IMG/VR virus record: IMGVR_UViG_3300022654_000689
Origin: a virus
Taxonomy: Duplodnaviria > Caudoviricetes
Reading direction: 5' to 3' (one strand)
Length of the DNA: 64,000 nt
Shown: positions 1 through 27,899 of the stretch, piece by piece
How positions within the stretch are numbered: position 1 is the first letter of the stretch
Layout: the number at the start of each line of letters is the position of its first letter
Made by a program: the position numbers and the translations under genes
Notes under the pieces: generated by a model
What the model saw: the letters and a program-made list of their open reading frames with translations, nothing else
Database searches by the model: none
Told to the model about the DNA's origin: nothing

Positions 1-824
1 ATCCCATACATATTAGTTACATTACTAGTATCAAAATTACTTACATCTAATTGAGTTAATTTATTACAATTTTCGAACATACTTAGCATATTAGTTACAT
101 TACTAGTATTAAAATTACTTACGTCTAATGAAGTTAAATTATTACAATTATTGAACATACTAGTCATAGTAGTTACTTTACTAGTATTTAAATACATAAC
201 TTCTAACAAACTATTAGAAAAATTATTTGCAGAACCACTTTCATTACCGAATCTCATTAATGTAGGTAATTCAGTACTATATATAGTTCTAGTAACCATC
301 GAATTTAGAGCTCGTAATTCTGTTATATTCTCTCGTATATTTCCCCCCCAAATTCTAAAGTATTTTGCATTATCAGGCACATCGATTTCATTTACAAGAC
401 TTCTATCCATTTGTGATATAAAAATTTTATTTTCGTCATACCAGTCAATTAACAACTGTCCACTATTAGGTGTTACTCTAATAATAGTATTTGGAATAAC
501 TTCTATATAATTGCCATTTCGATATATAGTGCTATCGGAAAATTCTGTATTTTCACCTGTATTGCCGTCTATACCACCGAGTTCCCAATTGAAATCACTT
601 ATAATTATTTCATATACTGCATTTTCATCTTCATAAGTATAATCCGTAAACTCAGCATTAAACTCAGGTATTAAATCATATAAAGTATTATTGAATTTAT
701 ATTCTGCTATTTTGTATTTGTCGCTTACCGTAATTTCTACTTCAACATCATTAGGTGATATATTTACATTATCTTCATGTTCAAATGTAAATGATATATA
801 AGCTATATCATTATTCGTTGCCAT
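1..824 (-). CDS. BspA/DUF285-type leucine-rich-repeat protein (runs off the window edge; not in ORF track)
   Basis: RBS GAGGTG then ATG at 824 (or 827). Manual translation MATNNDIAYISFTFEH...YKFNNTLYDLIPEFNAEF...SMFNNCNNLTSLDVSNFNTSNVTNM stays open to position 1. Paralogous to the two upstream LRR genes. Confidence 0.85.
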   Translation of the reverse strand, partial: MATNNDIAYISFTFEHEDNVNISPNDVEVEITVSDKYKIAEYKFNNTLYDLIPEFNAEFTDYTYEDENAVYEIIISDFNWELGGIDGNTGENTEFSDSTIYRNGNYIEVIPNTIIRVTPNSGQLLIDWYDENKIFISQMDRSLVNEIDVPDNAKYFRIWGGNIRENITELRALNSMVTRTIYSTELPTLMRFGNESGSANNFSNSLLEVMYLNTSKVTTMTSMFNNCNNLTSLDVSNFNTSNVTNMLSMFENCNKLTQLDVSNFDTSNVTNMYG

Positions 825-3306
825 CATTCATCACCTCATCTATTAATTTTTGTATATCTATTCCAAACATACGTTTTTTCTCTTCAGATATATCAATTAT
901 TTTTACTAATTCTTTATTAGCGTTGTATAAATAGCATTTCAATACATAAACGTTTTCTGTTAATACATTTACAGTGATTTGTTTTTTACCTGATATATCA
1001 ATATATTTAGTTTTTACAACATTTGGAACTTCATCTTCAAAAGCACCAGTACTATCATTTATATCACCTTGTATTAATTCGTTATTATCAGGTTCTTCTG
1101 GCTCTATTGATACTCCAACAATATTCCAGAATTTAGATTGTGCTGTTGTTACATCTACTTGACTAGAATCATCTACTCCTTCAATATTTAAGGTACCTGG
1201 ATCCTCACTAGTTCTAGTAGGAAGATCAGAGATCACTTTATTTACTGATGTATAGTTTGTATTTTTCATTTCAATATTTTTTAAACTACTTGTACCCAAT
1301 GAGAATGATGCACTTACAGTTGCATTACTAAGATCACAACTATTCATTGTTATAGTTTCTAAACTATAACAATCCTGGAATAGATAAGATATGTTTATCG
1401 ATGAATTAATAAATCCATCTAAATTTACAGATGTTAAATTGCTACATCTTCTAAACGCAGACATCATCATGTTTATATTATGATTAGTTAATAAACTAAA
1501 ATCTATAGTTTCTAATTTAGGACAATCAGAGAATAAACAATACATACGTGTTAGTGAACTATTACTAATATCCCATTCATCAATACCATTTACATATTTT
1601 AAATTAGTACAGCCAAGAAATGAACTATCTAAACTAGTAACTGCTGAAGTCACATTTAAATATTCAATGCCTAGTAAATTCGTTTTGTTTTTAAAGCTAA
1701 AAGTACTGAAATCTTCTTCTGAAATTATTTCTACAGTATATATACCGTTATTTTCCGTTTCTGTTAATTCATATGCATATCCACTATTAAATGTTGGGAC
1801 TACTCCTGCGGCATTTGCTGTATATCTAGCTACTAAATTGTTAATTTCAGTTTCTTCAACAACATTCCAGAATTTAGATTGTGCTGTTGTTATATCTACT
1901 TGACTAAAATCATCTACCCCTTCAATATTTAAAGTACCTGGAGAATCGCTTGTTCTAGTTGGTATTTTTTCTATAATTTTATTAACTGAATTATAATCTG
2001 AATTATTCATTATTATAGAAGTTAAATTCGTACAATTTAAGAACATACCAGAGGTATCAGTTACTTTATTCATATTAAACGTGCCTAAATTTATTGTAGC
2101 AAGATTTTTACAACCATAGAACATATAACTCATAGTAGTTACGTTACTAGTATTCCAATTAGATAAGTCTAATTCTGTTATACCAGTCATCCAATAAAAC
2201 ATTTCTCTCATGTTAGTTATGTTATCAACATTCCAATTTTTTATGTCTAGTGTAGTTAGGCTAGTACAATTACTGAACGTATTTTGCATACTAACTATGT
2301 TTGTAGTATTCCAGTTATTTATATTATTTATATTAGTTAAATTTAAACAGTCATTGAACATATATCTTAAAGATGTTAAATTACTTATATCGATATACTC
2401 AACATAAGTTAATTTGTAAGAATTAGTTCCCATGTCCATTGAAGTTGGTAAACTGTTACTATATATGGTTCTAGTTGTTATGTTTCCTTCTACTATATCC
2501 TCATATGTATAAGTAAAACCAGTATTGAACGCAGGTATTACATCTAAAGTATTGTCGAATTTATATTTTACTACCTTAATATCATAAACAACTGTTTCTT
2601 CATATTGGGCAGTAACGGTTAAATCCCTTGTTACATTACTAAAATCAGTGTCCCAACCTATGAATGTATATCCTTCTCTAGTAGGATTAGATGGTGCTGT
2701 CGCACTTTTGCCAATTTCAACAGTTTGAATTCCTAACACTGTTCCATTCCAGTCTTTAAATGTTACTGTAAAATATTGTGTCTCCGCATATTGAGCTGTT
2801 ACAGTTAAATTACTTGTTACATTACTAAAATCAATATCCCAACCTGTAAATACATACCCATCTCTAGTAGGGTTATCAGGTGCTGTTGCACTAGAACCTT
2901 CTTCTACTGTTTGAGTTTTTAATACTGTTCCGTCCCAATCTTTAAATGTTACTGTGTAAGTTGCTGGTTCTGTATAAGTCACAATATATGTCATATCAGT
3001 AAATTTTACATTAATAGTAGTATTTTTAGACGGCGCAGTTCTTGTTACTGTAACATCTGCAGAGCTAGTTATTGTAGTTCCTAAAGAAACACTAAAAGAA
3101 CCTGATGTAGTGGCTATAGACTCGTCATTTATTGTTACTCCAGTAATGCTTCCACCAGGAGTAATTGTACCAGTTAGCATACATGACGTAATTGTTGCGC
3201 CACTAGGTATAGATGGTGCTGTCCATTCAATAGTACCTGAACCTGATGTAAATTTATTTCTAAGCTGAATCGATAAATCGCTCGGTGTACTTGTTACTGT
3301 TGCCAT
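811..3306 (-). CDS. Virion/adhesin-like protein with 2 InlB-B (Listeria-Bacteroides) repeats and two BspA/DUF285 LRR blocks
   Basis: YTVTFKDWDGTVLKTQTVEEG...GYVFTGWD..FSNVT..LTVTAQY repeats; LDLSNWNTSNVTTMSYMFYGC LRRs; no signal peptide. Confidence 0.8.
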   Translation of the reverse strand: MATVTSTPSDLSIQLRNKFTSGSGTIEWTAPSIPSGATITSCMLTGTITPGGSITGVTINDESIATTSGSFSVSLGTTITSSADVTVTRTAPSKNTTINVKFTDMTYIVTYTEPATYTVTFKDWDGTVLKTQTVEEGSSATAPDNPTRDGYVFTGWDIDFSNVTSNLTVTAQYAETQYFTVTFKDWNGTVLGIQTVEIGKSATAPSNPTREGYTFIGWDTDFSNVTRDLTVTAQYEETVVYDIKVVKYKFDNTLDVIPAFNTGFTYTYEDIVEGNITTRTIYSNSLPTSMDMGTNSYKLTYVEYIDISNLTSLRYMFNDCLNLTNINNINNWNTTNIVSMQNTFSNCTSLTTLDIKNWNVDNITNMREMFYWMTGITELDLSNWNTSNVTTMSYMFYGCKNLATINLGTFNMNKVTDTSGMFLNCTNLTSIIMNNSDYNSVNKIIEKIPTRTSDSPGTLNIEGVDDFSQVDITTAQSKFWNVVEETEINNLVARYTANAAGVVPTFNSGYAYELTETENNGIYTVEIISEEDFSTFSFKNKTNLLGIEYLNVTSAVTSLDSSFLGCTNLKYVNGIDEWDISNSSLTRMYCLFSDCPKLETIDFSLLTNHNINMMMSAFRRCSNLTSVNLDGFINSSINISYLFQDCYSLETITMNSCDLSNATVSASFSLGTSSLKNIEMKNTNYTSVNKVISDLPTRTSEDPGTLNIEGVDDSSQVDVTTAQSKFWNIVGVSIEPEEPDNNELIQGDINDSTGAFEDEVPNVVKTKYIDISGKKQITVNVLTENVYVLKCYLYNANKELVKIIDISEEKKRMFGIDIQKLIDEVMNDGNE

Positions 3307-3308
3307 AA

Positions 3309-6269
3309 TTATTCACTCTCCCTTCCAAATTTAACTGGGCAACTTGATACATTAAATTTAATTCTATATTTATCATATATCAATTGTCCAACTGATTGTA
3401 TATCTGATAAATTTGATTTATTTTGAACTGTATTTCCGTACACTTCAGTTATATAAGAATCATGTATATAACATAAATTTTCACTTTCAACAACCATAGG
3501 ATAATTTGTATAAGTTTGATAATAATGATTATATTTTCCAAGATGTCCTATGTCGTCTCCATCTGAATCCTTTTGAATCACCCTTATATAGTTGAATACG
3601 AAATTTAAATTAGCAGCCGTTCCATCGTTACCAACTAATAATGTTGAATATTTTTTAAGTTTTATTATAGTTTTCAATATAGATGAAGAGTTTATAATAA
3701 AATCATCATTAAACGTAATACCATTATTGTTTAACTTTATTTTTATTTCTTTAGCTTCTGACATAGTTACATTACTTAAAAATAATGTTTCATCATTAAC
3801 AGAGTTCCAAATAGCAAAATTTAATTCAGTTTTTTCAGGATAGAAATTAATTTTGATTTGATCTGTTCTAGTTTCATCCATAATTGTTATAAGATTTAAA
3901 GGTCCACTACCTACATTATTTTCCCAACTCATTTTAGCTTCTAAATAGTCACCTCTAGCTAAATTAATAGACGCTGATATGAATAATTCTTCATTTAAAT
4001 GTCTTTCGGATATTAAATTATTTACAGTAATATCGCTTTTAAAGTAATCTTTATAAGGAAATCTAGCAGTCATATTAACTGGTTTTACTTCTTTTTCATT
4101 AGTATATATTTTCATATACGGATTATGTGTATTAAATGCTATTTTTTCAGTTATATCAGTTTCTATAATTTCTGGTGTTGATAAAACTAAAGATTCATTT
4201 ATTTCACCAATATAATCTTCTGGTATATCAATCCATTTTTCTATACAATATTTTTGCTTAGAATTGTCCCAATATAATTTATCTTTAATATTATTTATAG
4301 ACTTTAATTGTTGAGGTATTCTAACTTTTTGTGTTTCAAATGTGTAATTTCTGAATAAAGTATATTCATTAGAAGCACAATCTTCAGCAGATGTGTCCAA
4401 TACCCATATAGTTCTTTGTAAACCTTCTGCATTTGGAAATGCTAGTTGCAACATTTCACATGTTTTTTTATTTGAATAAAGTAAACCTATGTGTTTTAAA
4501 TTTTCACAGTTATAAAACATATTACTCATATCGGTTACATTACTAGTATCAAAATTACTTACGTCTAATGTAGTTAATGATTGACAATTATGGAACATAT
4601 AACTCATATCGGTTACATTACTAGTATCAAAATTACTTACGTCTAATGTAGTTAATGATTGACAATCTTTGAACATACTTTCCATATCAGTTACGTTACT
4701 AGTATTCCAATTACTTACATCTAATGAAGTTAAATTATTACAACCATAGAACATACTTTCCATATCAGTTACTTTACCAGTATTCCAATTACTTACATCT
4801 AATGAAGTTAAATTAGTACAATCAGAGAACATAGCATACATATTGGTTACATTACTAGTATTCCAATTACTTACATCTAATGTTGTTAAATTATTACAAC
4901 CATAGAACATATATTCCATATCAGTTACGTTACTAGTATCCCAATTACTTACATCTAATATAGTTAAATTATTACAACCGCTCATCATTCCATACATATT
5001 AGTGCATTTGTCAGTTATAATAAATGGTGTTATATAATTAATATTACAACATCCATGGAACATTAATTCACATGTTGTTATATTAGTTGCATCTAAATAT
5101 ATTAATTCAATTATTGCCCTGAATTTTGCTTTAGATGCTTCACCTCCACTACCACTACTATCAGGATTACCAAATCTAACCATTGTAGGTAAACTATTAC
5201 TATATATAGTTCTAGTAGTTACTTCTCCGTCCACTATATCTTCATAAGCATAACCTGTAAACTCAGCATTAAATTCTGGTATTAAATCATATAAAGTATT
5301 ATTGAATTTATATTTGACTATAATTTCTTCATACTGAGCTGTTACTAGTAAGTCACTAGTTACATTAGTAAAATCAACATCCCATCCTATGAATATATAA
5401 CCGTTTCTAGTAGGATTAGAAGGAGCAGTTGCAGATTGTCCCTCTTCAACTTGTTCAGTTTTTAACACCGTTCCGTCCCAATCTTTAAATGTTACTATGT
5501 AATGAATTATTTCTTCATACTGAGCTGTTACTAGTAAGTCACTAGTTACATTAGTAAAATCAACATCCCATCCTATGAATATATAACCGTCTCTAGTAGG
5601 ATTATCAGGTGCTGATGCTGGTTGTCCTTCTTCTACAGTTTGAGTTTTTAATACTGTTTCGTCCCAATCTTTAAATGTTACTGTATAATAAATTATTTCT
5701 TCATACTGAGCAGTAACAGTTAAATTGTTAGTTACATTAGTAAAATCAACATCCCATCCTATGAATGTATAACCGTCTCTAGTAGGATTAGAAGGAGCAG
5801 TTGCAGATTGTCCCTCTTCAACTTGTTCAGTTTTTAACACCGTTCCATCCCAATCTTTAAATGTTACTGTATAAGTTGTTGGTTCGGATGAACTATCATC
5901 TATATATAAGTATGCCCCTTCGATAAAACCCTCTATAACATAGTTACTAGTAGAACGTATATAAATCGTTGGGTGAGCAGTGTCGACAATAGTAACGGTA
6001 ATTTCTTTATTATAACTAGTAACAACATCAGGGTTTGAATCTATTTCCATATAAATACCTGAAGGTATAGATGCTACTCCTAATTTTATAGTTTTTCCTG
6101 CAATCATGTCTAGTGTACCAAAACTACTATGTATAGAATAGTCAGCTGTTTCAAAGCATACTTCTACACTATAGTCTTGTTTATCAACAAAATATACCTC
6201 ATTCTCTTCTTCAAAAATCCAATAGCCACTATTAAATTTAGGAAATAAGTTTTCACCAGTTGTTGCCAT
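3309..6269 (-). CDS. Virion/adhesin-like protein with 3 InlB-B repeats and a BspA/DUF285 LRR array
   Basis: Three YxVTFKDWD repeats; about seven 26-aa LDVSNW(N/D)TSNVTDMxxMFxxC repeats; C-terminal module homologous to ORF 6270-6548. Confidence 0.8.
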   Translation of the reverse strand: MATTGENLFPKFNSGYWIFEEENEVYFVDKQDYSVEVCFETADYSIHSSFGTLDMIAGKTIKLGVASIPSGIYMEIDSNPDVVTSYNKEITVTIVDTAHPTIYIRSTSNYVIEGFIEGAYLYIDDSSSEPTTYTVTFKDWDGTVLKTEQVEEGQSATAPSNPTRDGYTFIGWDVDFTNVTNNLTVTAQYEEIIYYTVTFKDWDETVLKTQTVEEGQPASAPDNPTRDGYIFIGWDVDFTNVTSDLLVTAQYEEIIHYIVTFKDWDGTVLKTEQVEEGQSATAPSNPTRNGYIFIGWDVDFTNVTSDLLVTAQYEEIIVKYKFNNTLYDLIPEFNAEFTGYAYEDIVDGEVTTRTIYSNSLPTMVRFGNPDSSGSGGEASKAKFRAIIELIYLDATNITTCELMFHGCCNINYITPFIITDKCTNMYGMMSGCNNLTILDVSNWDTSNVTDMEYMFYGCNNLTTLDVSNWNTSNVTNMYAMFSDCTNLTSLDVSNWNTGKVTDMESMFYGCNNLTSLDVSNWNTSNVTDMESMFKDCQSLTTLDVSNFDTSNVTDMSYMFHNCQSLTTLDVSNFDTSNVTDMSNMFYNCENLKHIGLLYSNKKTCEMLQLAFPNAEGLQRTIWVLDTSAEDCASNEYTLFRNYTFETQKVRIPQQLKSINNIKDKLYWDNSKQKYCIEKWIDIPEDYIGEINESLVLSTPEIIETDITEKIAFNTHNPYMKIYTNEKEVKPVNMTARFPYKDYFKSDITVNNLISERHLNEELFISASINLARGDYLEAKMSWENNVGSGPLNLITIMDETRTDQIKINFYPEKTELNFAIWNSVNDETLFLSNVTMSEAKEIKIKLNNNGITFNDDFIINSSSILKTIIKLKKYSTLLVGNDGTAANLNFVFNYIRVIQKDSDGDDIGHLGKYNHYYQTYTNYPMVVESENLCYIHDSYITEVYGNTVQNKSNLSDIQSVGQLIYDKYRIKFNVSSCPVKFGRESE

Positions 6270-6548
6270 CTATATTCTACCCCCCTTCCCAAATTCATAT
6301 GGACATGCTGACTGTATTATTTCTATTTCATATACTTCATCTAAAGCTTTCTCCCCTACAGAAGATATATCTAATAAATCATTTTCATTTTGTACAGTAT
6401 TTCCTTCTATTTCTTCTATATAGGTTTTTTCTTCTTCATCTAATAATTCTGAAACTATTTCTATCGGATAATTAGTTTTAGTAATAGTAAATTTATTTAT
6501 TACTGGTAATTTTTCTCCTTTTTCATTAAATAATAATTTTTTACTCAT
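6270..6548 (-). CDS. Small fibre-associated module protein
   Basis: RBS GGAGG before ATG 6548. TNYP..V.SE...YIxE.xGNTVQN...L.DI.SVG...CP..FG matches the C-terminus of the 986-aa ORF. Confidence 0.7.
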   Translation of the reverse strand: MSKKLLFNEKGEKLPVINKFTITKTNYPIEIVSELLDEEEKTYIEEIEGNTVQNENDLLDISSVGEKALDEVYEIEIIQSACPYEFGKGGRI

Positions 6549-6560
6549 TCGCAATCCCTC

Positions 6561-8324
6561 CTAATTACCATACTCAATGTAACCTATAAGCCATTCCCCT
6601 ATATAAGTAAAAATAAACTCATAAGTTCTATTAGCATTTATTTCGGGTTGTTTTTGATACTTACCAGGTGGGAATATTAAAGTTAAATCAGCCAATGTTG
6701 AAAAATATAAGTGTATTTCAGTAAAATCTGTTACTGTTGGTAAAACTATTTCAGTTCCATCTGTTATTTCAACTTTTTGATATTTATCAGTAGTCAAATT
6801 AATTACTGAATCATTTACATTAATTATATTTAATGTAGGATTAACTATATTATCTACATATAATTTAGTTGTTAAATCATTATCATTAGTAGGCGTTCCA
6901 TCTACACTTACATTGCCTTGGAACCATGCATTACCATCCCAATCTAATGTATGAGCATTTTTACGATTAGCTTCGCTAGTCCCATTACCAACTATATGAG
7001 CATATGTATTTGCTGCATCTTCAATGTTATATTTACCTTGCACATGTTGATAACTGCTACTTGCTTTTGTATAATATCCTTCTGCGTGTGATGCGTATTG
7101 ACCATTCGCTTCTGTTTTATAGCCTTCTGCATGACCATAATACGTACCTCTTGCAGTTTTAGTATTTGCTCCTTCAGTATGACCTCTTTCCCCATTGGCT
7201 TCTGTTTCATAGCCTTCTGCATGAGATGCTCCACCTATTGCAATTGATCTAATACCTTCGGAATGAGATCCATTACCTAATGCGCTAGTACGGTTTCCTT
7301 CAGCATGAGCTGCATGTCCTAAAGCTTTTGTACCAACACCTTCGGCATGTGCCCCTGTTTCTACAGCCATAGTTTCTGTTCCTTCTGAATGAGAAAAATC
7401 TCCAGTTGCTTTATTATTTTCGTAATCATTAAATATTTCTGAACCTTCTCCGGCTGTTCTTTCAATATTATCGACTTGCTCAGGATAACCATCTGAACCT
7501 GTTTGGGCTATAGACACTACACAAGTCTCGCCTTCAAATTTTTTACCAGTTATATAATCAACAAATTGAGAAGGTAATTCTTTTAATTCTCCTTCCAATA
7601 AAAATGTCATATTGTAATTTTTGACATAGAATTCATAACCATCAACTTGTACTTTAAAAAACCAGATTCCTGGTGTCAGAGTATATTCTTCATCATAATT
7701 AAATAATGTTACAGTAGATTCACTATAAACAAAGATTATATAGTCGTTAAAATTGATATAGGAATCATTCTTATCTACATTTGGATTTTGTATTTGTCTA
7801 GTGGATTCACCTCCGTCAGTATCAAACCCGGTTACTTCAAGGCTAAATAATTCACCATTTACAACTGGCGCTGTGTCAGATACTTTAACAAAATATTCTG
7901 CTGGACTAAGTTCTACAACAGTTTTATCTGTCAAATTTCCATCAAAAACAACTGGAGAAGTTATAGTCTCAAAAACTCTATTATCATAACAAGGTAAATC
8001 TTCTAAATCTACTTTATTATTCCAATACTCCTTTTCCTCTTCAGTTACTTGTATAAATTCTTCATTAGTATCATTTATTTCTAAATACAATGTATTTTCA
8101 TCACGATTTTCTATTTTTTCTAATTCTTCTGTAGTTCCTACCCATAACGAATAACCATTAAGAGTTACTGCATTCACATCGACAAATTTATTGTCTACAT
8201 AATTTATTGTAGCAAAATTTTCTATTATACTGTCTAATGATTCACCATTATTATATACACAATCAATTCTAGTGACAGGAACTATGTTATTCCCATTTTC
8301 TTTAAGTATTTTTTTAATTGCCAT
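6561..8324 (-). CDS. Tail/head fibre protein with YadA-head-like (S/A)HAEG repeats
   Basis: About nine 14-aa xHxEGxxTxAxG repeats, followed by AHIVGNG...RKNAHTLDWDGNAWF. N-terminal KKILKENG..I.P.TR.DCVY module. Confidence 0.75.
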   Translation of the reverse strand: MAIKKILKENGNNIVPVTRIDCVYNNGESLDSIIENFATINYVDNKFVDVNAVTLNGYSLWVGTTEELEKIENRDENTLYLEINDTNEEFIQVTEEEKEYWNNKVDLEDLPCYDNRVFETITSPVVFDGNLTDKTVVELSPAEYFVKVSDTAPVVNGELFSLEVTGFDTDGGESTRQIQNPNVDKNDSYINFNDYIIFVYSESTVTLFNYDEEYTLTPGIWFFKVQVDGYEFYVKNYNMTFLLEGELKELPSQFVDYITGKKFEGETCVVSIAQTGSDGYPEQVDNIERTAGEGSEIFNDYENNKATGDFSHSEGTETMAVETGAHAEGVGTKALGHAAHAEGNRTSALGNGSHSEGIRSIAIGGASHAEGYETEANGERGHTEGANTKTARGTYYGHAEGYKTEANGQYASHAEGYYTKASSSYQHVQGKYNIEDAANTYAHIVGNGTSEANRKNAHTLDWDGNAWFQGNVSVDGTPTNDNDLTTKLYVDNIVNPTLNIINVNDSVINLTTDKYQKVEITDGTEIVLPTVTDFTEIHLYFSTLADLTLIFPPGKYQKQPEINANRTYEFIFTYIGEWLIGYIEYGN

Positions 8325-21776: not shown

Positions 21777-22895
21777 TTAGTATTTAAATGTCATATTGAA
21801 GTTAGTATTTGTATTAGCTCCATTAGCATATACATAATATGCTTGAGCTGTTCCATCTAAACCTACTACAGAAACTTCAGTTCTAGTGAAAGTTCCTATT
21901 TGTTCGAATCCATTAGGGTCTAATATTGATTTTAGAACACCATAAGATTTAGGATAAGCTATAACCATACGTTGATTGTCTGATGTAAATGAATATGTTT
22001 TATTACCTTTTGCAACAACTTGTTTAGTTAGTCCTTTAACTACGTCAGCTGTTATTTCAACACCATCTGCAACTACTCCATAATAATATGGATAATAGAA
22101 ATTAAGAGCTACAGTATTAGCTGTAACTGATTTTCCACTTGCATCAGTTGCTACAACTTTAAAGTAACTAGTTGACGCAGTTTTAATAACTTGTTGAGCT
22201 GGATCGAATTCGTGTACAAAACTACCACCACCTGCAACGTCTTCAGTTACTTCTTCAACAACCGCATTATTTACATAAAATTTAACACTAGTTATATTTT
22301 CTGATTTTTTAATAACATTTGCAGTTATTCTGCTAACTTCAATAGTTTGACCAAATTCATATACTCCACCAGTTGGAGTGTATCCTAATGATGCAGATAC
22401 AGTTGGCTGAACGTAAGGATATAATAATTTAGTTAAAACTTGTTGTATTGACATACCATTTAAATCAGTTCCGGCTGGTATTCCGCCTAACGCAGATACA
22501 GTTTTCATATCAGCTTTGAATACATCATTTTCAGCAACTTCTTCTAGTTCTTCTTTAGTTGCTAATCCAGATATATCAACACTTCCTCCGCCTACTCCAG
22601 CTTCAGCTATCGCGTCTTCAACAAACTCTTTAGTTACATATGGCAATTCTTGATACGTATCAACTAAAGCATTTTTTATAGTAGATAAACCAGATTTACC
22701 ATCTTTCAATGTTAATACTTCAAATCTTTTGCCAGTATCTTTAACATATACAATCATACCAATATATGGTTTTGGTATTGACATAATATCTGCTTCTGTT
22801 TCTACTCTACATCTAACGTCTAAAGGTGTATCAGTAGTAGATGGTTTAAAACCGCCTTTAGATGCTGATGCATTAAGATTAAAATCTGTAGCCAT
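21777..22895 (-). CDS. Fibre connector protein with probable Ig-like domain
   Basis: N-terminal MATDFNLN..ASKGGFKPS.TDTPLD.RCRVETE module; LGGIPAGT...LLYPYVQPT; C-terminal YYPYYYG...YYVY domain. Confidence 0.7.
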   Translation of the reverse strand: MATDFNLNASASKGGFKPSTTDTPLDVRCRVETEADIMSIPKPYIGMIVYVKDTGKRFEVLTLKDGKSGLSTIKNALVDTYQELPYVTKEFVEDAIAEAGVGGGSVDISGLATKEELEEVAENDVFKADMKTVSALGGIPAGTDLNGMSIQQVLTKLLYPYVQPTVSASLGYTPTGGVYEFGQTIEVSRITANVIKKSENITSVKFYVNNAVVEEVTEDVAGGGSFVHEFDPAQQVIKTASTSYFKVVATDASGKSVTANTVALNFYYPYYYGVVADGVEITADVVKGLTKQVVAKGNKTYSFTSDNQRMVIAYPKSYGVLKSILDPNGFEQIGTFTRTEVSVVGLDGTAQAYYVYANGANTNTNFNMTFKY

Positions 22896-22918
22896 TAATT
22901 ATCAACTCCTTTTTTAAA

Positions 22919-24412
22919 TTAATTTTCATCGATGTGGATTGTATAATTTGCTCCACCATTAGTATCATACATTCCTGATAGTCTATATTTGATACCGTCT
23001 ATTTCATTTACTAATTCAACATTGTCTAATGATAACCCAGACACTGTATCAAATTCTGTGAAACTACATTTTTTACCATTACCTTCATCCATTGAAGCTA
23101 CTAAAGTACTATCTACAGGTAATATTACACATATAAATCCATTAGCTGGTACTTCTAACTCAACAGAACCTACAGCTTCAGGTTCAGCTTCTATTAATGA
23201 TCCATTATCTATACCAAATTTCATTATATCATAAGTCATATTTCCATTTATATGATTAGTTTCAGAGAATCCAGCAACTCCAGTTTCATCGTATGGTATA
23301 TATCCATACCACATTTTTGAATTAGCAGGGCCAGCCATAACAGGATAACACTTAGGTAAATTGAATATTACTGTTATATTAGGGAATTCTCCTACCATTT
23401 CAACTGAAGGTTCAAATCCATTTTCAATCATATTTACTTGGAATTGATAATTAGCACCATTAATAACTCCATCTTGAGTTATTTGAATATTAGAACCTGC
23501 TTTAACACCACCTAATTCTTCATTAGTAGCAACTGGAAGTTCATAATTGTCAACGTTAGCTAATCTTTCTATTTCAGCATCATCTACAAGAGATTTTCCT
23601 TCTACTTTATCTACTTTAGCACCTAGTCCTTCATTAACAAAGTTTTCAGTAGCTAGTCCTTCTATAGATGGTATTTCAGGTTTATTAGTTAAATCATTGT
23701 AATCTTTACTAAATAATTCTGATTTATCAGCTTTATTAGCTAATATTCCTCTTATTTCAGCGTCATCATAATTGTCAACGTTAGCTAATCTTGCTATTTC
23801 AGCATCATCAACAAGAGATTTACCTTCCACTTTATCTACTTTGTTAGTTAACCCTTCATTAACAAAGTTTTCGCTAGCTAAACCTTCTATACTAGGTATT
23901 TCAGGTTTATTAACTAAGTCATTATAATCTTTATTGAATAATTCAGATTTATCAGCTTTATTAGCTAATATTCCTCTTATTTCAGCGTCATCATAGTTAT
24001 CAACATCTGCTAATCTTGCTATTTCAGCATCATCAATTAATGATTTACCTTCTGCCTTATCTACTTTGTTAGCTAACCCTTCATTAACAAAGTTTTCAGT
24101 AGCTAATCCTTCTATATTAGGTATTTCAGGCTTATCAGCTAAGTCATTATAAGAAACTATTAATTCTCTATATTCATTAACTGCAGCGTTTTTAACAACA
24201 GATAATCCAGCTTTAATATCTTTTAATGATAATACTTCAAATCTTTTACCAGTATCTTTAACATATATTACCATACCAATATATGGTTTTGGTATTGACA
24301 TAATGTCTGCTTCTGTTTCTACTCTACATCTAATATCCAAAGGTGTATCAGTAGAGGACGGTTTAAAACCGCCCTTAGAAGCAGATGAGTTAAGATTAAA
24401 ATCTGTAGCCAT
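22919..24412 (-). CDS. Fibre protein
   Basis: N-terminus near-identical to 21777-22895; shaft KVDKVEGKSLVDDAEIARL repeats; YELPVAT.EELGGVK motif; C-terminus near-identical to that of 24441-27899. Confidence 0.75.
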   Translation of the reverse strand: MATDFNLNSSASKGGFKPSSTDTPLDIRCRVETEADIMSIPKPYIGMVIYVKDTGKRFEVLSLKDIKAGLSVVKNAAVNEYRELIVSYNDLADKPEIPNIEGLATENFVNEGLANKVDKAEGKSLIDDAEIARLADVDNYDDAEIRGILANKADKSELFNKDYNDLVNKPEIPSIEGLASENFVNEGLTNKVDKVEGKSLVDDAEIARLANVDNYDDAEIRGILANKADKSELFSKDYNDLTNKPEIPSIEGLATENFVNEGLGAKVDKVEGKSLVDDAEIERLANVDNYELPVATNEELGGVKAGSNIQITQDGVINGANYQFQVNMIENGFEPSVEMVGEFPNITVIFNLPKCYPVMAGPANSKMWYGYIPYDETGVAGFSETNHINGNMTYDIMKFGIDNGSLIEAEPEAVGSVELEVPANGFICVILPVDSTLVASMDEGNGKKCSFTEFDTVSGLSLDNVELVNEIDGIKYRLSGMYDTNGGANYTIHIDEN

Positions 24413-24440
24413 TATAACATCCCCTTCTTATTATATTAAA

Positions 24441-27400
24441 TTATTTTTCTTGAACATAAATTGTATATCTTGCTCCACCATTAGTATCATACATTCCTGA
24501 AAGTTTATATGTAACACCATTTATTTTGTTAACTAGTGTACGATCATCTAATGATAATCCAGAAACTGTATCAAAGTCACTAAATGTTCCAGCATTTCCT
24601 ATACCATCATCTATAAGTCCTATTAAATTACTATCTAATGGTAGTATTGTACATAAGAAACCATTTGCTCCTACTAAAAATTCTGTAGCTCCTAAAACTC
24701 CTGGTTCAGCTTCAATTAAAGTTCCATTGTCTATACCGAATTTCATTATATCATAAGTCATATTTTCATTTATATGATCTACTTCAGAGAATCCTGCTAC
24801 TCCACTTTCGTCATATGGTATCCATCCATACCACATTTTTGGAGTCCCTGGTTCTTCCTCTTCTCCTTCTCCACCGCCTTCAACAACGCTTCCAGCAGGT
24901 ATGTTAAATACAACAGTAATATTTGGATAATCTCCTTGCATAGAAACAGATGCAGCTTCTCCAGCAGCTATCATATTAATTTTGAATTGATAGTTTGCAT
25001 TGAATACTCCAGCTAGTCTTTCTATTTCAGCATCATCTACAAGAGATTTATTTTCAACTTTATCTACTTTACCAGATATATCAACTTGAGGATGTTCTAT
25101 TGCAGCTATTTGTTGATTAACGAATTCTTCACTAGCTAATCCTTCAACAGATGGTATTTCAGACTTATCAGCTTTATCAGCTATCATTTCTCTTAATTCA
25201 GAATCATCATAAGCTAAATCTTCGTCAACTGGTCTTTCTACTTTTTCTAACATAGAAATATCACCATTGTTGACAACACAGTCCATTATAGAACCTTTAA
25301 CGTCTTCAGCAATCATTTCAACTCCATTGTCAGTACCAAATTTGAAATTATTAACTGTTCCTCCGTTTAATTCTACAAATCCGTCTTCTATTATACCATT
25401 AACAGTAGCGTCTTCAGTTTCTCCACCGAAGTATAGATTTTGAACAATACCGTCATTTAATACAAATCTAGCTTTGAATACAACACCTCTGTTTGTTGAT
25501 TGAGCTACTTTAACAGAACCTCCGTTTAGAACTATTTCAGCATTTCTTGTCATACCATTAGAACCACCAGCTGTTACCCAACCGATTTCACAATTGTTAA
25601 ATTCTGCATAAACATCATCTGCAACACCATTTCCTTGTGATCCACCGAAGAATGTAGAAGATATTTTACAATTAGTCATTTTAATATTTATATCGTCTAC
25701 TACGTTCATTCTAGTTGCTTTACCGTTAACAGATGCACCACACCAACCAGCACCCATAACAGAAACAAATTCGCAGTTTTCAGCTTCCATGTTAACATGG
25801 CCTACCATACCTTCGAAATAGCATCCACCAACTAAACCTTTGATTTTAACATCTCTAACAATCATATTAGTTTGAGGTATGGAACGTCTAGCTCCAATAT
25901 TTCTATCTCCAAAACCACCAACTAAATAAACTTTAGCAGCTTCTTCTTTTTCAACTACTATAGCTTCAAATCCTTCCGCCCATCTATAAACGAATGCTAC
26001 TGCATCTTCAGGTTTTTCAGCATCATACTTATGTCCTATATTAGGTTCAACTGTCATTGGTTGACCACAAGCAAATAAGAATTTACTAGTTGGATACGCT
26101 GCAACATCAGTTAGATAAGGTTTTTCTTCATCTATTAATACTCTCAATTCAGAATCATCATAGTTATCAACATTTGCTAGTCTAGCTATTTCTTCATCAG
26201 CTACTAGTGATTTCCCTTCAACTTTATCTACTTTAGCATCTAAATCTTCTTTAGTAGCAAAACCTGACAAATCAATTCCTTCACCGTTTTCGCCGCCACC
26301 TAATTGAGCTTCAGCTATTTTTTGATTAACAAAATCTTCACTAGCTAGTCCATCTATAGATGGTATTTCAGGTTTGTTAACTAAGTCATTATAATCTTTA
26401 CTGAATAGTTCGTCTTTTCCAGCTTTACCATCTATCATTTCTCTTAATTCAGTATCATCGTAATTATCTACATTAGCTAGTCTAGCTATTTCAGCGTCGT
26501 CAACTAAAGATTTACCTTCTACTTTATCTACTTTATTATCAATTAATCCTCTTAATTCAGCATCATCGTAATTTTTAAATTGATCTAAATCATCTTTAGT
26601 AGCTAAATTACTTAAATCAGGAACTTTATATAGTTCAGGACGAATTAAATTATCATCACCAAATATATGAATTCCTTGGACTGCATTATTTATTTTATCT
26701 CTTACAGCTTGATGAAGATCTTCTTCAGGAATTCCATCATCAGGTTTGTTATATTTTGCATTCCATATGTCTCTTTCACCTGAAAGAACATGAGCATCGT
26801 TGTCGTCTCTATGAATTCCCCATTCGTTATTTATGAAATCTTCATAATCTTCTTTTGATACATAATCACCTGATATACTTCCTTCTCTTTCAGGTAATAA
26901 TTCATCTCTCACCTTACCAGATAAAGGATCAACTATATCGCTAAATGGGAATATTTTAGCCATTTCATCTTTTATGTCATTTCCTAAATGAGAAAATTTT
27001 AAACCGTCAGCAGGCATATCAAATTTATTATCCCATTCAATTATTTTAGCATCATTTATTGTATCTAATAGTGCTTTATTTTCATGAACATGGAAATCAG
27101 TCTTATCAGCCTTTTCAGATATAAGATCTCTTAATAAAGAATCGTCATAGTTATCAACATTTGCTAGTCTAGCTATTTCAGCGTCGTCAACTAAAGATTT
27201 ACCTTCTACTTTATCTACTTTATTAGCTAATTCGTCTTTAGTAGCTAATCCTGATAGATCTATTTCTTGGTCTCCACCACCTAATTCAGCTTCAGCTATA
27301 GCATTTCTAACAAAATTTTCAGTAGCTAAACCTTCTATAGAAGGTATTTCTGATTTATCTGCTTTAAGAGCAAGTTTAGCATCTATAACCGCTAATTCTT

Positions 27401-27899
27401 CAGGATCGACTCCCCCAATTTTCTTTAACTCTTCTTGTACATATTTTTTACTAGCAAATTCCTCAACATTAACAATAACATCTAAGAAATTACCATTAAG
27501 AGTTATTATCTGTTTCATATCTTTTAATACTACTTCAAATCCGTCAGCTGAGATATTAAATACAAACATTACTTGGTCATTTATTCCAAAACAAACAACT
27601 TCAATTCTGTCATTATTATTTTCGGCAAGTCCTCTACCAATGTTTAATATTCTAGCTAAATTTGGATTAATATCAGTATATCCGAATATTTTTCCATCTT
27701 TTAATTGAAAATCTTCTTTGAAATCAACAGTTATATAATTATAAATTGCATTTTTTACGCCATCATTATCTAATAGTTTAAATGAATCTTCATAAACTAC
27801 ATAGCTGTCTCTAATTATTTCTAAATAGTTTTCCATATTAATTTTACCTAATAACGCATTAATTTCGTCACCAGTATAATGAATGTTATAGTAATTCAA
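24441..27899 (-). CDS. Large fibre protein with Gly-rich beta-helix-like domain
   Basis: N-terminal YTGDEINALL motif, shaft repeats, repeated (L/V/F)xGG motifs at ~aa 660-870, and a C-terminal KMWYGWIPYDE...YDTNGG domain. Confidence 0.75.
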   Translation of the reverse strand: MNYYNIHYTGDEINALLGKINMENYLEIIRDSYVVYEDSFKLLDNDGVKNAIYNYITVDFKEDFQLKDGKIFGYTDINPNLARILNIGRGLAENNNDRIEVVCFGINDQVMFVFNISADGFEVVLKDMKQIITLNGNFLDVIVNVEEFASKKYVQEELKKIGGVDPEELAVIDAKLALKADKSEIPSIEGLATENFVRNAIAEAELGGGDQEIDLSGLATKDELANKVDKVEGKSLVDDAEIARLANVDNYDDSLLRDLISEKADKTDFHVHENKALLDTINDAKIIEWDNKFDMPADGLKFSHLGNDIKDEMAKIFPFSDIVDPLSGKVRDELLPEREGSISGDYVSKEDYEDFINNEWGIHRDDNDAHVLSGERDIWNAKYNKPDDGIPEEDLHQAVRDKINNAVQGIHIFGDDNLIRPELYKVPDLSNLATKDDLDQFKNYDDAELRGLIDNKVDKVEGKSLVDDAEIARLANVDNYDDTELREMIDGKAGKDELFSKDYNDLVNKPEIPSIDGLASEDFVNQKIAEAQLGGGENGEGIDLSGFATKEDLDAKVDKVEGKSLVADEEIARLANVDNYDDSELRVLIDEEKPYLTDVAAYPTSKFLFACGQPMTVEPNIGHKYDAEKPEDAVAFVYRWAEGFEAIVVEKEEAAKVYLVGGFGDRNIGARRSIPQTNMIVRDVKIKGLVGGCYFEGMVGHVNMEAENCEFVSVMGAGWCGASVNGKATRMNVVDDINIKMTNCKISSTFFGGSQGNGVADDVYAEFNNCEIGWVTAGGSNGMTRNAEIVLNGGSVKVAQSTNRGVVFKARFVLNDGIVQNLYFGGETEDATVNGIIEDGFVELNGGTVNNFKFGTDNGVEMIAEDVKGSIMDCVVNNGDISMLEKVERPVDEDLAYDDSELREMIADKADKSEIPSVEGLASEEFVNQQIAAIEHPQVDISGKVDKVENKSLVDDAEIERLAGVFNANYQFKINMIAAGEAASVSMQGDYPNITVVFNIPAGSVVEGGGEGEEEEPGTPKMWYGWIPYDESGVAGFSEVDHINENMTYDIMKFGIDNGTLIEAEPGVLGATEFLVGANGFLCTILPLDSNLIGLIDDGIGNAGTFSDFDTVSGLSLDDRTLVNKINGVTYKLSGMYDTNGGARYTIYVQEK

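Follow-up and report, generated by a model that had tools for sequence, protein, structure and literature searches.

A small jelly-roll domain probably divided between two adjacent proteins of a phage tail-fibre cluster

The window analysed here is a stretch of 64,000 nt from a virus of the Caudoviricetes (IMG/VR record IMGVR_UViG_3300022654_000689). Two overlapping genes for LRR proteins lie at its beginning, both on the minus strand, and the features that concern us are the following.

811..3306, minus strand: upstream gene, encoding an 831-aa LRR protein (ORF list; Pfam PF03382, PF09479)
814..1098, minus strand: C-terminal split module of that protein, aa 737-831 (EEPDNNEL...MNDGNE), about 95 aa (conserved C-terminal position; dN/dS)
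901..1083, minus strand: module portion with homology to strands 1-5 of the intact family, aa 742-802 (family HMM; hhalign)
814..900, minus strand: module tail, aa 803-831 (29 aa), a short strand region and a predicted amphipathic helix (AlphaFold2; complex contacts)
830..837, minus strand: Shine-Dalgarno element GAGGTGAT for the downstream gene, within the coding sequence of the upstream one (read directly)
811..824, minus strand: overlap of upstream stop and downstream start, 14 nt (read from sequence)
1..827, minus strand: downstream gene, encoding a DUF285 LRR protein that runs off the window and has 622 aa in the parent record (ORF list; Pfam)
726..824, minus strand: N-terminal candidate donor peptide of the downstream protein, 33 aa (conservation across loci; model contacts)
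312..608, minus strand: intact paralogous domain in the downstream protein, aa 74-172, core about 78-163 (relatives; AlphaFold2; structure matches)

Besides its C-terminal split module, the 831-aa protein has a domain at the N-terminus, two Flg_new repeats and two LRR blocks of the DUF285/BspA type. An earlier note on this DNA had pointed to an intact domain inside the downstream protein, and such a domain is indeed present there. It has 254 relatives at E ≤ 1e-3 in an exhaustive search, with the consensus WDEEWE.G.I ... YD.NK.FIS ... P.NA.Y.RF, and its AlphaFold2 model is a beta-sandwich of eight strands (pLDDT 86.4, pTM 0.80). Among known structures, the domain most resembles jelly-rolls of the CBM type and domains of phage tailspikes; Z in VIA-align goes up to 6.4, a middling value at which other sandwiches are also possible. 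Foldseek returned no match for the intact paralogue in the PDB at E ≤ 0.001, and a profile search found one PDB relative of the family, the tail protein 9wwc_B (E 1.6e-6). The module, the peptide and the intact domain all lack a named family in Pfam and PHROGs, and an Atlas search with the module was uninformative, all scores being below 0.9.

The upstream C-terminus resembles this domain, as the earlier note had claimed, and it covers only part of it. With the window's own copy left out of its construction, a family HMM aligns with the module of the 831-aa protein at positions 20-79 only (26 bits), the core of the family extending roughly from 18 to 102. Compared profile to profile with hhalign, the module matches family columns 14-73 only (E 2.5e-5). 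By both methods the five N-terminal strands of the family, including the E.G.I and YD.NK motifs, are present in the module, and both alignments stop at strand 5; the last strands (P.NA.Y.RF and the strand after it) are absent from the polypeptide. The module thus lacks the last two or three strands and not, as first supposed, the last one only. In their place stands the module tail, with a helix at segment residues 87-96 in the AlphaFold2 secondary structure. BLASTP offers another alignment (E 0.008), in which the tail (KKRMFGIDIQKLIDEV) falls on the region of the intact domain that holds its last strand; if it is right, the module would miss a different strand. This alignment also favours the reading that the module is a complete, though divergent and shortened, domain, to which the peptide adds an edge strand by ordinary beta-augmentation docking, like that of the docking peptides in branched receptor-binding proteins, or in which it completes no fold at all. 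That reading is at odds with the family HMM and hhalign, both of which end at module strand 5, and we consider it unlikely. The module is probably an incomplete jelly-roll that would form the socket of a predicted joint.

The next protein begins with a peptide that may supply the missing part. In the peptide alignment 33 residues are conserved before the sequences diverge, and they comprise two amphipathic strands, YISFTF and VEVEITV, in which the alternate hydrophobic positions are the invariant ones. The resemblance of the downstream N-terminus to the missing strands, also proposed earlier, is borne out by the family HMM and is faint: the segment MATNNDIAYISFTF...ISPNDVEVEITV aligns with positions 90-133, corresponding to the part that the module lacks, at a weak 7.9 bits. 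This was the top score among the 107 ORF N-termini of the genome (the runner-up reached 4.1), and 11 of 2000 shuffled sequences scored as high. The peptide profile did not match the family profile significantly in hhalign, and the type-2 peptide, from the second of two junction types described below, is out of register with the family HMM. Such weak homology to the last strands of the family also speaks for a module that is complete by itself. The two profile alignments nevertheless cover complementary parts of one domain, one on each side of the gene boundary.

The boundary itself was read at nucleotide level. The upstream gene stops with TAA at 811-813 and the downstream gene starts with ATG at 822-824, which gives the 14-nt overlap that had been reported; another ATG lies at 825-827, from which the overlap is 17 nt. 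In the downstream frame, two TGA codons directly precede the start, and the ribosome-binding site of the downstream gene in the window is strong. Two types of junction occur across the related loci, one with the 14-nt overlap in the +1 frame and one with TAATG in the +2 frame. The Shine-Dalgarno element as in the window is present at all type-1 junctions, and every downstream gene has a Shine-Dalgarno element and an ATG of its own.

These signals bear on the possibility that the two genes are really one, fused by a sequencing indel or, as the earlier note had suggested as its alternative, by a +1 ribosomal frameshift. The overlap of the genes and the collinearity of the domain pieces across the boundary would fit a fusion. 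However, the split is present in 11 independent assemblies, which answers the question of an indel, and the two junction types would need shifts in opposite directions, which effectively excludes both sequencing error and programmed frameshifting. In 10 of 11 loci the interval from the last stop in the downstream frame to the upstream stop measures only 4-17 nt, and by-eye inspection found no slippery heptamer in these permissive intervals. In a fused chain, moreover, strand F and the H-like strand would be separated by the 29-aa tail. With a Shine-Dalgarno element and an ATG at all loci, and none of 43 module proteins running past the module, a single gene is the least probable of the explanations considered here and hardly credible. 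Stop-codon reassignment was likewise rejected, the upstream stop being TAA in every junction read and the downstream frame differing between the two junction types.

Whether the split is conserved in related phages had been raised as a check on the idea, and it proved to be so. Relatives were gathered from the protein database and by exact-protein look-ups; neither the single proteins nor the module alignment, used as queries against the viral and JGI metagenome collections, brought up related loci. A protein search with the peptide alone returned two proteins, probably owing to a word-index limit, and this number is no measure of rarity. The module lies at the extreme C-terminus in all 43 database proteins that carry it, which range from 184 to 1910 aa, and neither a fused form nor an extension past the module was found among them. 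In 11 of 12 distinct loci the donor peptide opens the next gene, a recurrence that places the arrangement beyond chance. At the exception (L024/L025) the gene that comes after the one with the module has no peptide, and its product itself ends in a module. The downstream proteins have 75 to 1153 aa, mini-proteins of 75-77 aa among them, and the complete peptide-carrying ones end in other sequences than the module. The proposal that the LRR proteins are linked into chains finds no backing, the downstream proteins, with this one locus excepted, having no module to pass on and the predicted joint being pairwise.

The module has a mean column identity of 77%, and the bodies of the proteins differ. 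A block much more conserved than the bodies that flank it, and joined to many bodies on both sides, could be mainly a DNA-level recombination linker for cassette swaps, with protein ends that do not bind. The substitution pattern argues otherwise. The module is under purifying selection, with dN/dS of 0.15-0.32 at dS of 0.13-1.1; its synonymous sites have diverged (dS 0.4-1.1) and its protein sequence has been kept, and high dS together with low dN/dS indicates selection on the protein and not on the DNA. The amphipathic strands of the peptide, with their invariant hydrophobic positions, also speak against a mere linker, as does a complex model that beats its controls (below). We therefore regard this account as improbable in its exclusive form. 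A role as a recombination linker is, however, compatible with the predicted binding and probably holds as well.

Modelling the C-terminus of the upstream protein together with the N-terminus of the downstream one, a further check put forward in the earlier note, gave a complex score of 0.70, compared with 0.00 for the best of three controls. The score is the model's own confidence; 58 of 80 solved complexes attain this level, as do 2 of 110 mismatched pairs, counts that hold only roughly because our own alignments were used. At least 91% of the contacts agree between runs, and the partner pLDDT is at least 69. Paired with the peptide, the module reaches a pLDDT of 73-74; unrelated partners leave it at 42-46. 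Modelled alone by AlphaFold2, the module (pLDDT 62.5, pTM 0.50) is poorer than the intact paralogue. With 35 rows at 77% identity, the module alignment is shallow, and a shortage of information may explain part of the poor quality of the monomer model, as it would if the module were a complete domain. Against a complete domain stands the gain in module confidence, which occurs only with the true partner.

The contacts in the complex model indicate where the peptide would lie. Peptide residues 9-14 contact module residues 32-38 as well as 55-63, an interior and not an edge position, which again disfavours docking onto a finished domain. Peptide residues 27-33 contact module residues 45-51, with 46-47 among the closest pairs; residues 76-94, in the tail, also contact the peptide, and the interface list further has module residues 10-18. 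The two sheets of a jelly-roll follow the BIDG/CHEF topology. Based on the contact list and this textbook topology, the two peptide strands are predicted to lie between module strands, at the places of jelly-roll strands H and I.

Taken with the complementary profile coverage and the conserved split, the complex model supports the central proposal of the earlier note, that the N-terminal peptide of one protein completes the fold of its neighbour. We consider it likely that the module and the first 33 or so residues of the next protein are two halves of one small CBM-like jelly-roll that joins the two proteins; we infer that the proteins bind physically, fold together and are present in the virion. 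The split domain probably descends from the intact one, which many phage tail proteins contain. The upstream half would give strands B to F, perhaps also G, and the extra helix, and the downstream peptide would give the interior strands H and I, one to each sheet. Each half would be unstable by itself, in which case two separately translated proteins would join, probably during folding, as a non-covalent heterocomplex. Their synthesis would be coupled in place and amount by the overlapping stop and start and the internal Shine-Dalgarno element. As plug and socket occur on many different bodies, the pair probably works as a standard connector, which would let adhesin-like cassettes (LRR, Flg_new) of the tail-fibre cluster be swapped on either side. 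A bolder form of the proposal, on which we are evenly divided, is that the pair, made next to each other by translational coupling, constitutes an obligate co-folding device and a universal, exchangeable connector in a lineage of large gut-type phages, by which any upstream adaptor or adhesin of 184-1910 aa could carry any LRR adhesin or 75-77-aa mini-protein.

Several known systems invite comparison. In chaperone-usher pili (Fim, Pap), an incomplete sandwich is filled by the N-terminal extension of the neighbouring subunit; the pilins have an Ig-like fold without one strand, and with the help of a periplasmic chaperone and an usher they form polymers by strand exchange. The likeness is that an incomplete beta-sandwich would be filled by the N-terminus of a neighbour, here by prediction. 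The earlier analogy does not hold in its particulars, since two strands and not one would be donated, into the interior of jelly-roll sheets and not at an Ig edge, and the joint would be pairwise and formed in the cytoplasm of a phage-infected cell. No pilus chaperone or usher family appears in the Pfam tables of the neighbouring genes in the related loci, where the setting is a phage tail-fibre cluster.

A second parallel is offered by the docking peptides of Klebsiella phages, in which a conserved, portable N-terminal peptide of about 30 aa docks a second protein, encoded by an adjacent gene, onto the first. In those phages the peptide is received by a complete domain close to the N-terminus of RBP1, and the proteins carried are depolymerases. 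In the present case the receiving domain is incomplete and stands at the very C-terminus, the peptide seems to provide what this domain lacks, and the proteins carried are LRR and Flg_new proteins. Branched receptor-binding proteins of this type have a T4gp10-like branching domain in the first protein; Pfam and PHROGs assign the module to no family.

A literature search found no account of donor-strand complementation in phage tail fibres. The closest structural case is the baseplate of the Lactococcus phage Tuc2009, for which a crystal structure shows that a C-terminal hairpin of BppU completes a sheet in domain 2 of BppA, a joint that mounts an accessory protein bearing a carbohydrate-binding module (PMC4742702). 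In both systems a terminal two-strand hairpin would complete the sheet of a partner to yield a beta-sandwich, here by prediction. The donor in Tuc2009, however, is a C-terminal extension, and here it would be the N-terminal end of the protein encoded next; the composite there is Ig/titin-like, and here it would be a CBM-like jelly-roll with intact relatives and with the donated strands predicted to be interior. When all PDB sequences were searched with profiles of the module and the intact family, no BppU or BppA chain came up at E ≤ 1.

If the proposal is correct, uncultured phages of very large size assemble modular adhesion devices from parts that separate genes encode, and a naturally split domain serves as a standard plug and socket by which receptor-binding cassettes can be swapped by recombination while assembly is kept. 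It would also extend the one structurally proven case, BppU-BppA of Tuc2009, to another fold and to N-terminal donation. A rule of a C-terminal module followed by a peptide at the next N-terminus would then help to annotate hypothetical proteins of these phages as virion-associated partners. In addition, the 95-aa module together with its 33-aa peptide is a candidate for joining proteins orthogonally, or for use as a portable heterodimerisation tag. Very small carriers of both halves occur among the natural proteins: the downstream proteins of 75-77 aa consist of the peptide, a linker and a conserved C-terminal motif, and a 222-aa upstream protein has little beyond the N-terminal domain and the module.

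The observation in the earlier note that a domain is split at a gene boundary was confirmed. The proteins concerned lie in a cluster on the minus strand, given here in transcription order and followed by the two halves of the split domain.

Window 6561-8324, minus strand: 587-aa fibre-like protein with weak YadA_head repeats, first in the cluster
Window 6270-6554, minus strand: 94-aa ORF, second
Next after the 94-aa ORF, minus strand: the 986-aa, 831-aa and 622-aa proteins
Window 814-1098, minus strand: the module, the C-terminal ~95 aa (aa 737-831) of the 831-aa protein, a predicted incomplete jelly-roll
Window 726-824, minus strand: the peptide, the N-terminal 33 aa of the 622-aa protein, a putative strand donor

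DUF285/BspA-type LRRs are present in all three large proteins, and Flg_new repeats in the 986-aa and 831-aa proteins. The 622-aa gene extends past the window start, and its full length was taken from the parent IMG/VR virus record (113.6 kb; estimated completeness 44%; GC ~29%), of which the window is a part. A near-identical phage from another assembly has the same two proteins at the split, one with a single substitution and the other differing by exactly one 26-aa LRR unit. A database protein from a 180-kb contig equals the 622-aa protein minus exactly one such unit (window 1-100, minus strand; L009:9781-11649, L009 being a part of the parent record), reflecting either repeat copy-number variation or assembly collapse in near-identical 78-bp repeats. 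Upstream of the window in that record, a 489-aa ORF (L009:4356-5825, plus strand) resembles by eye a 4-alpha-glucanotransferase (amylomaltase).

The intact domain of the 622-aa protein (about aa 74-172) is real and a member of a large family. With aa 72-185 as the query, an exhaustive HMMER search yielded 254 proteins (E<=1e-3), several domain copies being present in many of them, and the family consensus is N.WDEEWE.G.I..TG.N...IRSKNYI.V.PNT.YY...YD.NK.FIS...T.P.NA.Y.RF. AlphaFold2 modelled the domain as an eight-strand sandwich (68-row alignment; pLDDT 86.4, pTM 0.80), and its structural matches, which are middling (Z up to 6.4), are CBM-type jelly-rolls and phage tailspike/fibre domains. 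At the sequence level, the family aligns with residues 28-95 in chain B of PDB 9wwc, a solved phage 'Tail protein' (E 1.6e-6); none of the Pfam or PHROGs models searched covers the domain. Comparison of ..YEDENAVYEIIISDF[domain]MVTRTIYSTELPT in the 622-aa protein with ..YEDIVDGEVTTRTIYSNSLPT in the 986-aa paralogue places it as an insertion (window 339-596, minus strand) within a conserved pre-LRR module.

Based on the HMM, hhalign and shuffle results, it is well supported that the 831-aa protein ends in a truncated copy of this domain, while by sequence the homology of the peptide to the strands that the module has lost is no more than suggestive. With the window's own copy left out of its construction, a family HMM matched the protein's end over positions 20-79 only, from the E.G.I motif to YD.NK.FIS (26 bits), and the module profile aligned by hhalign with family columns 14-73 only (E 2.5e-5). 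Beyond the matched part lie 29 further module residues (IIDISEEKKRMFGIDIQKLIDEVMNDGNE) that are absent from the family, part of them a helix as predicted by AlphaFold2. The missing part, positions 90-133, was matched by the N-terminal 48 residues of the following protein at a weak 7.9 bits. This was the top score when the N-termini of 107 ORFs from the genome were compared (runner-up 4.1), and 11 of 2000 peptide shuffles reached it. A second peptide subtype did not align in register with the family HMM, and hhalign gave no significant match between the peptide and family profiles.

The module was found in 43 database proteins of 184-1910 aa (identity 61-100%), always at the extreme C-terminus; none of the 43 extends beyond it (0 residues past the aligned end in one subtype, 5 in the other), and the remainder of each protein differs. 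At the protein level it shows purifying selection (dN/dS 0.15-0.32 at dS 0.13-1.1); for the peptide, so short a sequence gives no firm dN/dS. When the DNA of 12 distinct loci was compared, the window included, the next gene started with the same 33-residue peptide in 11 (M..NNDI.YI.F.F.E.....I.P..VEVEI). Its invariant residues include I10, F12, F14, V27, V29 and I31, alternate positions of two amphipathic strands. Module and peptide fall into two co-varying subtypes. In type 1, a module ending in GNE or GDE (typically MNDGNE) precedes MATNNDI.YI[SA]FTF; the two genes overlap by 14 nt, and the second is read in the +1 frame. In type 2, a module ending in EDEG[SG]DQ precedes MDNNI.YIAFDF (MTNDVKYIAFDF in the related locus L017); here the overlap is TAATG, and the second gene is read in the +2 frame. 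Every junction carries a Shine-Dalgarno sequence of its own, GAGGTGAT in type 1 and GAAGGGAG or a close variant in type 2. At the exceptional locus (L024:4001-6738, L025:1659-2920), a 212-aa module protein is followed, across a TAATG overlap, by a gene starting MSTIYKLPTP without the canonical peptide; at the end of the contig, this second gene finishes with a module belonging to the other subtype.

As an alternative to two separate proteins, the earlier note had proposed a +1 frameshift fusion. The stretch in which a ribosome would need to shift frame is only 4-17 nt long in 10 of 11 loci, no slippery site was seen in these stretches by eye, and the two junction types would need shifts in opposite directions. 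A conserved programmed frameshift, and equally a sequencing indel, is thereby ruled out.

The module alone was poorly modelled (35-row alignment; pLDDT 62.5, pTM 0.50), with few defined strands. Module and peptide (residues 2-42), each with its own alignment, gave a complex score of 0.70 in three runs, the best of three controls scoring 0.00; in the tool's calibration, 58 of 80 solved complexes attained this level, as did 2 of 110 mismatched pairs, counts that are only approximate here because our own alignments were used. Contact agreement between runs was at least 91% and partner pLDDT at least 69, and the module reached a pLDDT of 73-74 with the peptide versus 42-46 with unrelated proteins in its place. 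Among the least-error contacts, peptide residues 9-14 (YISFTF) run antiparallel to module residues 55-63 (VYVLKCYLY) and also lie against 32-38 (VVKTKYI), and peptide residues 27-33 (VEVEITV) contact module residues 45-51, a strand whose residues 46-47 are in some of the closest pairs; module residues 10-18 are also in the interface list. If the module strands are lettered B to F along the chain, strands C and E would flank the first peptide strand and strands D and B the second, the H and I places in a jelly-roll, whose classical sheets are BIDG and CHEF. This topology is inferred from the contact list together with the textbook jelly-roll. If it holds, one interior strand per sheet would be supplied in trans, which would account for the lack of a stable fold when the module is modelled alone.

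It is likely, in our judgement, that the peptide completes the module's domain. The two proteins would be translated separately from overlapping, coupled cistrons and would join by rebuilding the domain. The core of this reading, already put forward in the earlier note, holds up computationally, while its details and its analogy need adjusting. The bodies on both sides of the joint vary widely, which argues for a role as a connector: the smallest upstream proteins consist of an N-terminal domain and the module (222 aa in the related locus L022; another has 184 aa), and the downstream proteins extend from 365-1153-aa LRR proteins down to 75-77-aa mini-proteins, which comprise only the peptide, an acidic linker and the C-terminal motif common to most downstream proteins. 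A gene or small ORF matching Phage_tail_C regularly precedes the module-bearing gene, and the clusters also hold collagen-repeat fibre genes; this neighbourhood places the split joint in the tail-fibre apparatus.

The closest experimentally proven case is Tuc2009 BppU-BppA, in which a 25-residue C-terminal hairpin of BppU completes a sheet of BppA domain 2, the composite being like an Ig/titin domain (PMC4742702). The closest functional parallel is found in the docking peptides of Klebsiella podophages. Chaperone-usher pili have the principle in common with it but differ in fold and machinery and in forming a polymer. The split joint differs from these systems in its jelly-roll fold with known intact relatives, in having as its donor the N-terminus of the following gene product, which is predicted to give two strands, in an acceptor at the extreme C-terminus, and in carrying BspA-type LRR proteins.

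Most peptide-bearing downstream proteins end in a ~25-aa motif of the type ..LG...I..(I/M)Y(I/L)GD..I...Y, which may be a second docking element. The regions concerned in the related loci are:

L013:10922-11155
L019:7196-7423
C-termini in L010, L016, L017, L020, L021 and L022

In the window's own genome, a 695-aa LRR protein ends in a looser version (L009:7283-9370, C-terminus). Matching C-terminal and N-terminal modules recur at other junctions of the fibre cluster: 1152-aa and 497-aa proteins (window 21777-27899, minus strand) have a common ~70-aa C-terminal module (..FDTVSGLSLD..LSGMYDTNGGA.YTI), and the gene after each starts MATDFNLN.SASKGGFKPS. The 94-aa ORF (window 6270-6554, minus strand) and the C-terminal ~70 aa of the 986-aa protein (window 3309-3530, minus strand) also have a module in common (EGNTVQN...DI.SVG...CP..FG), and in both cases a gene starting MAT begins within 0-2 nt. 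A Pfam search of the window's own 94-aa ORF gave no match; in relatives, the position of this ORF or of the 986-aa protein's end is held by a small gene or C-terminus that does match PF24243 (Phage_tail_C).
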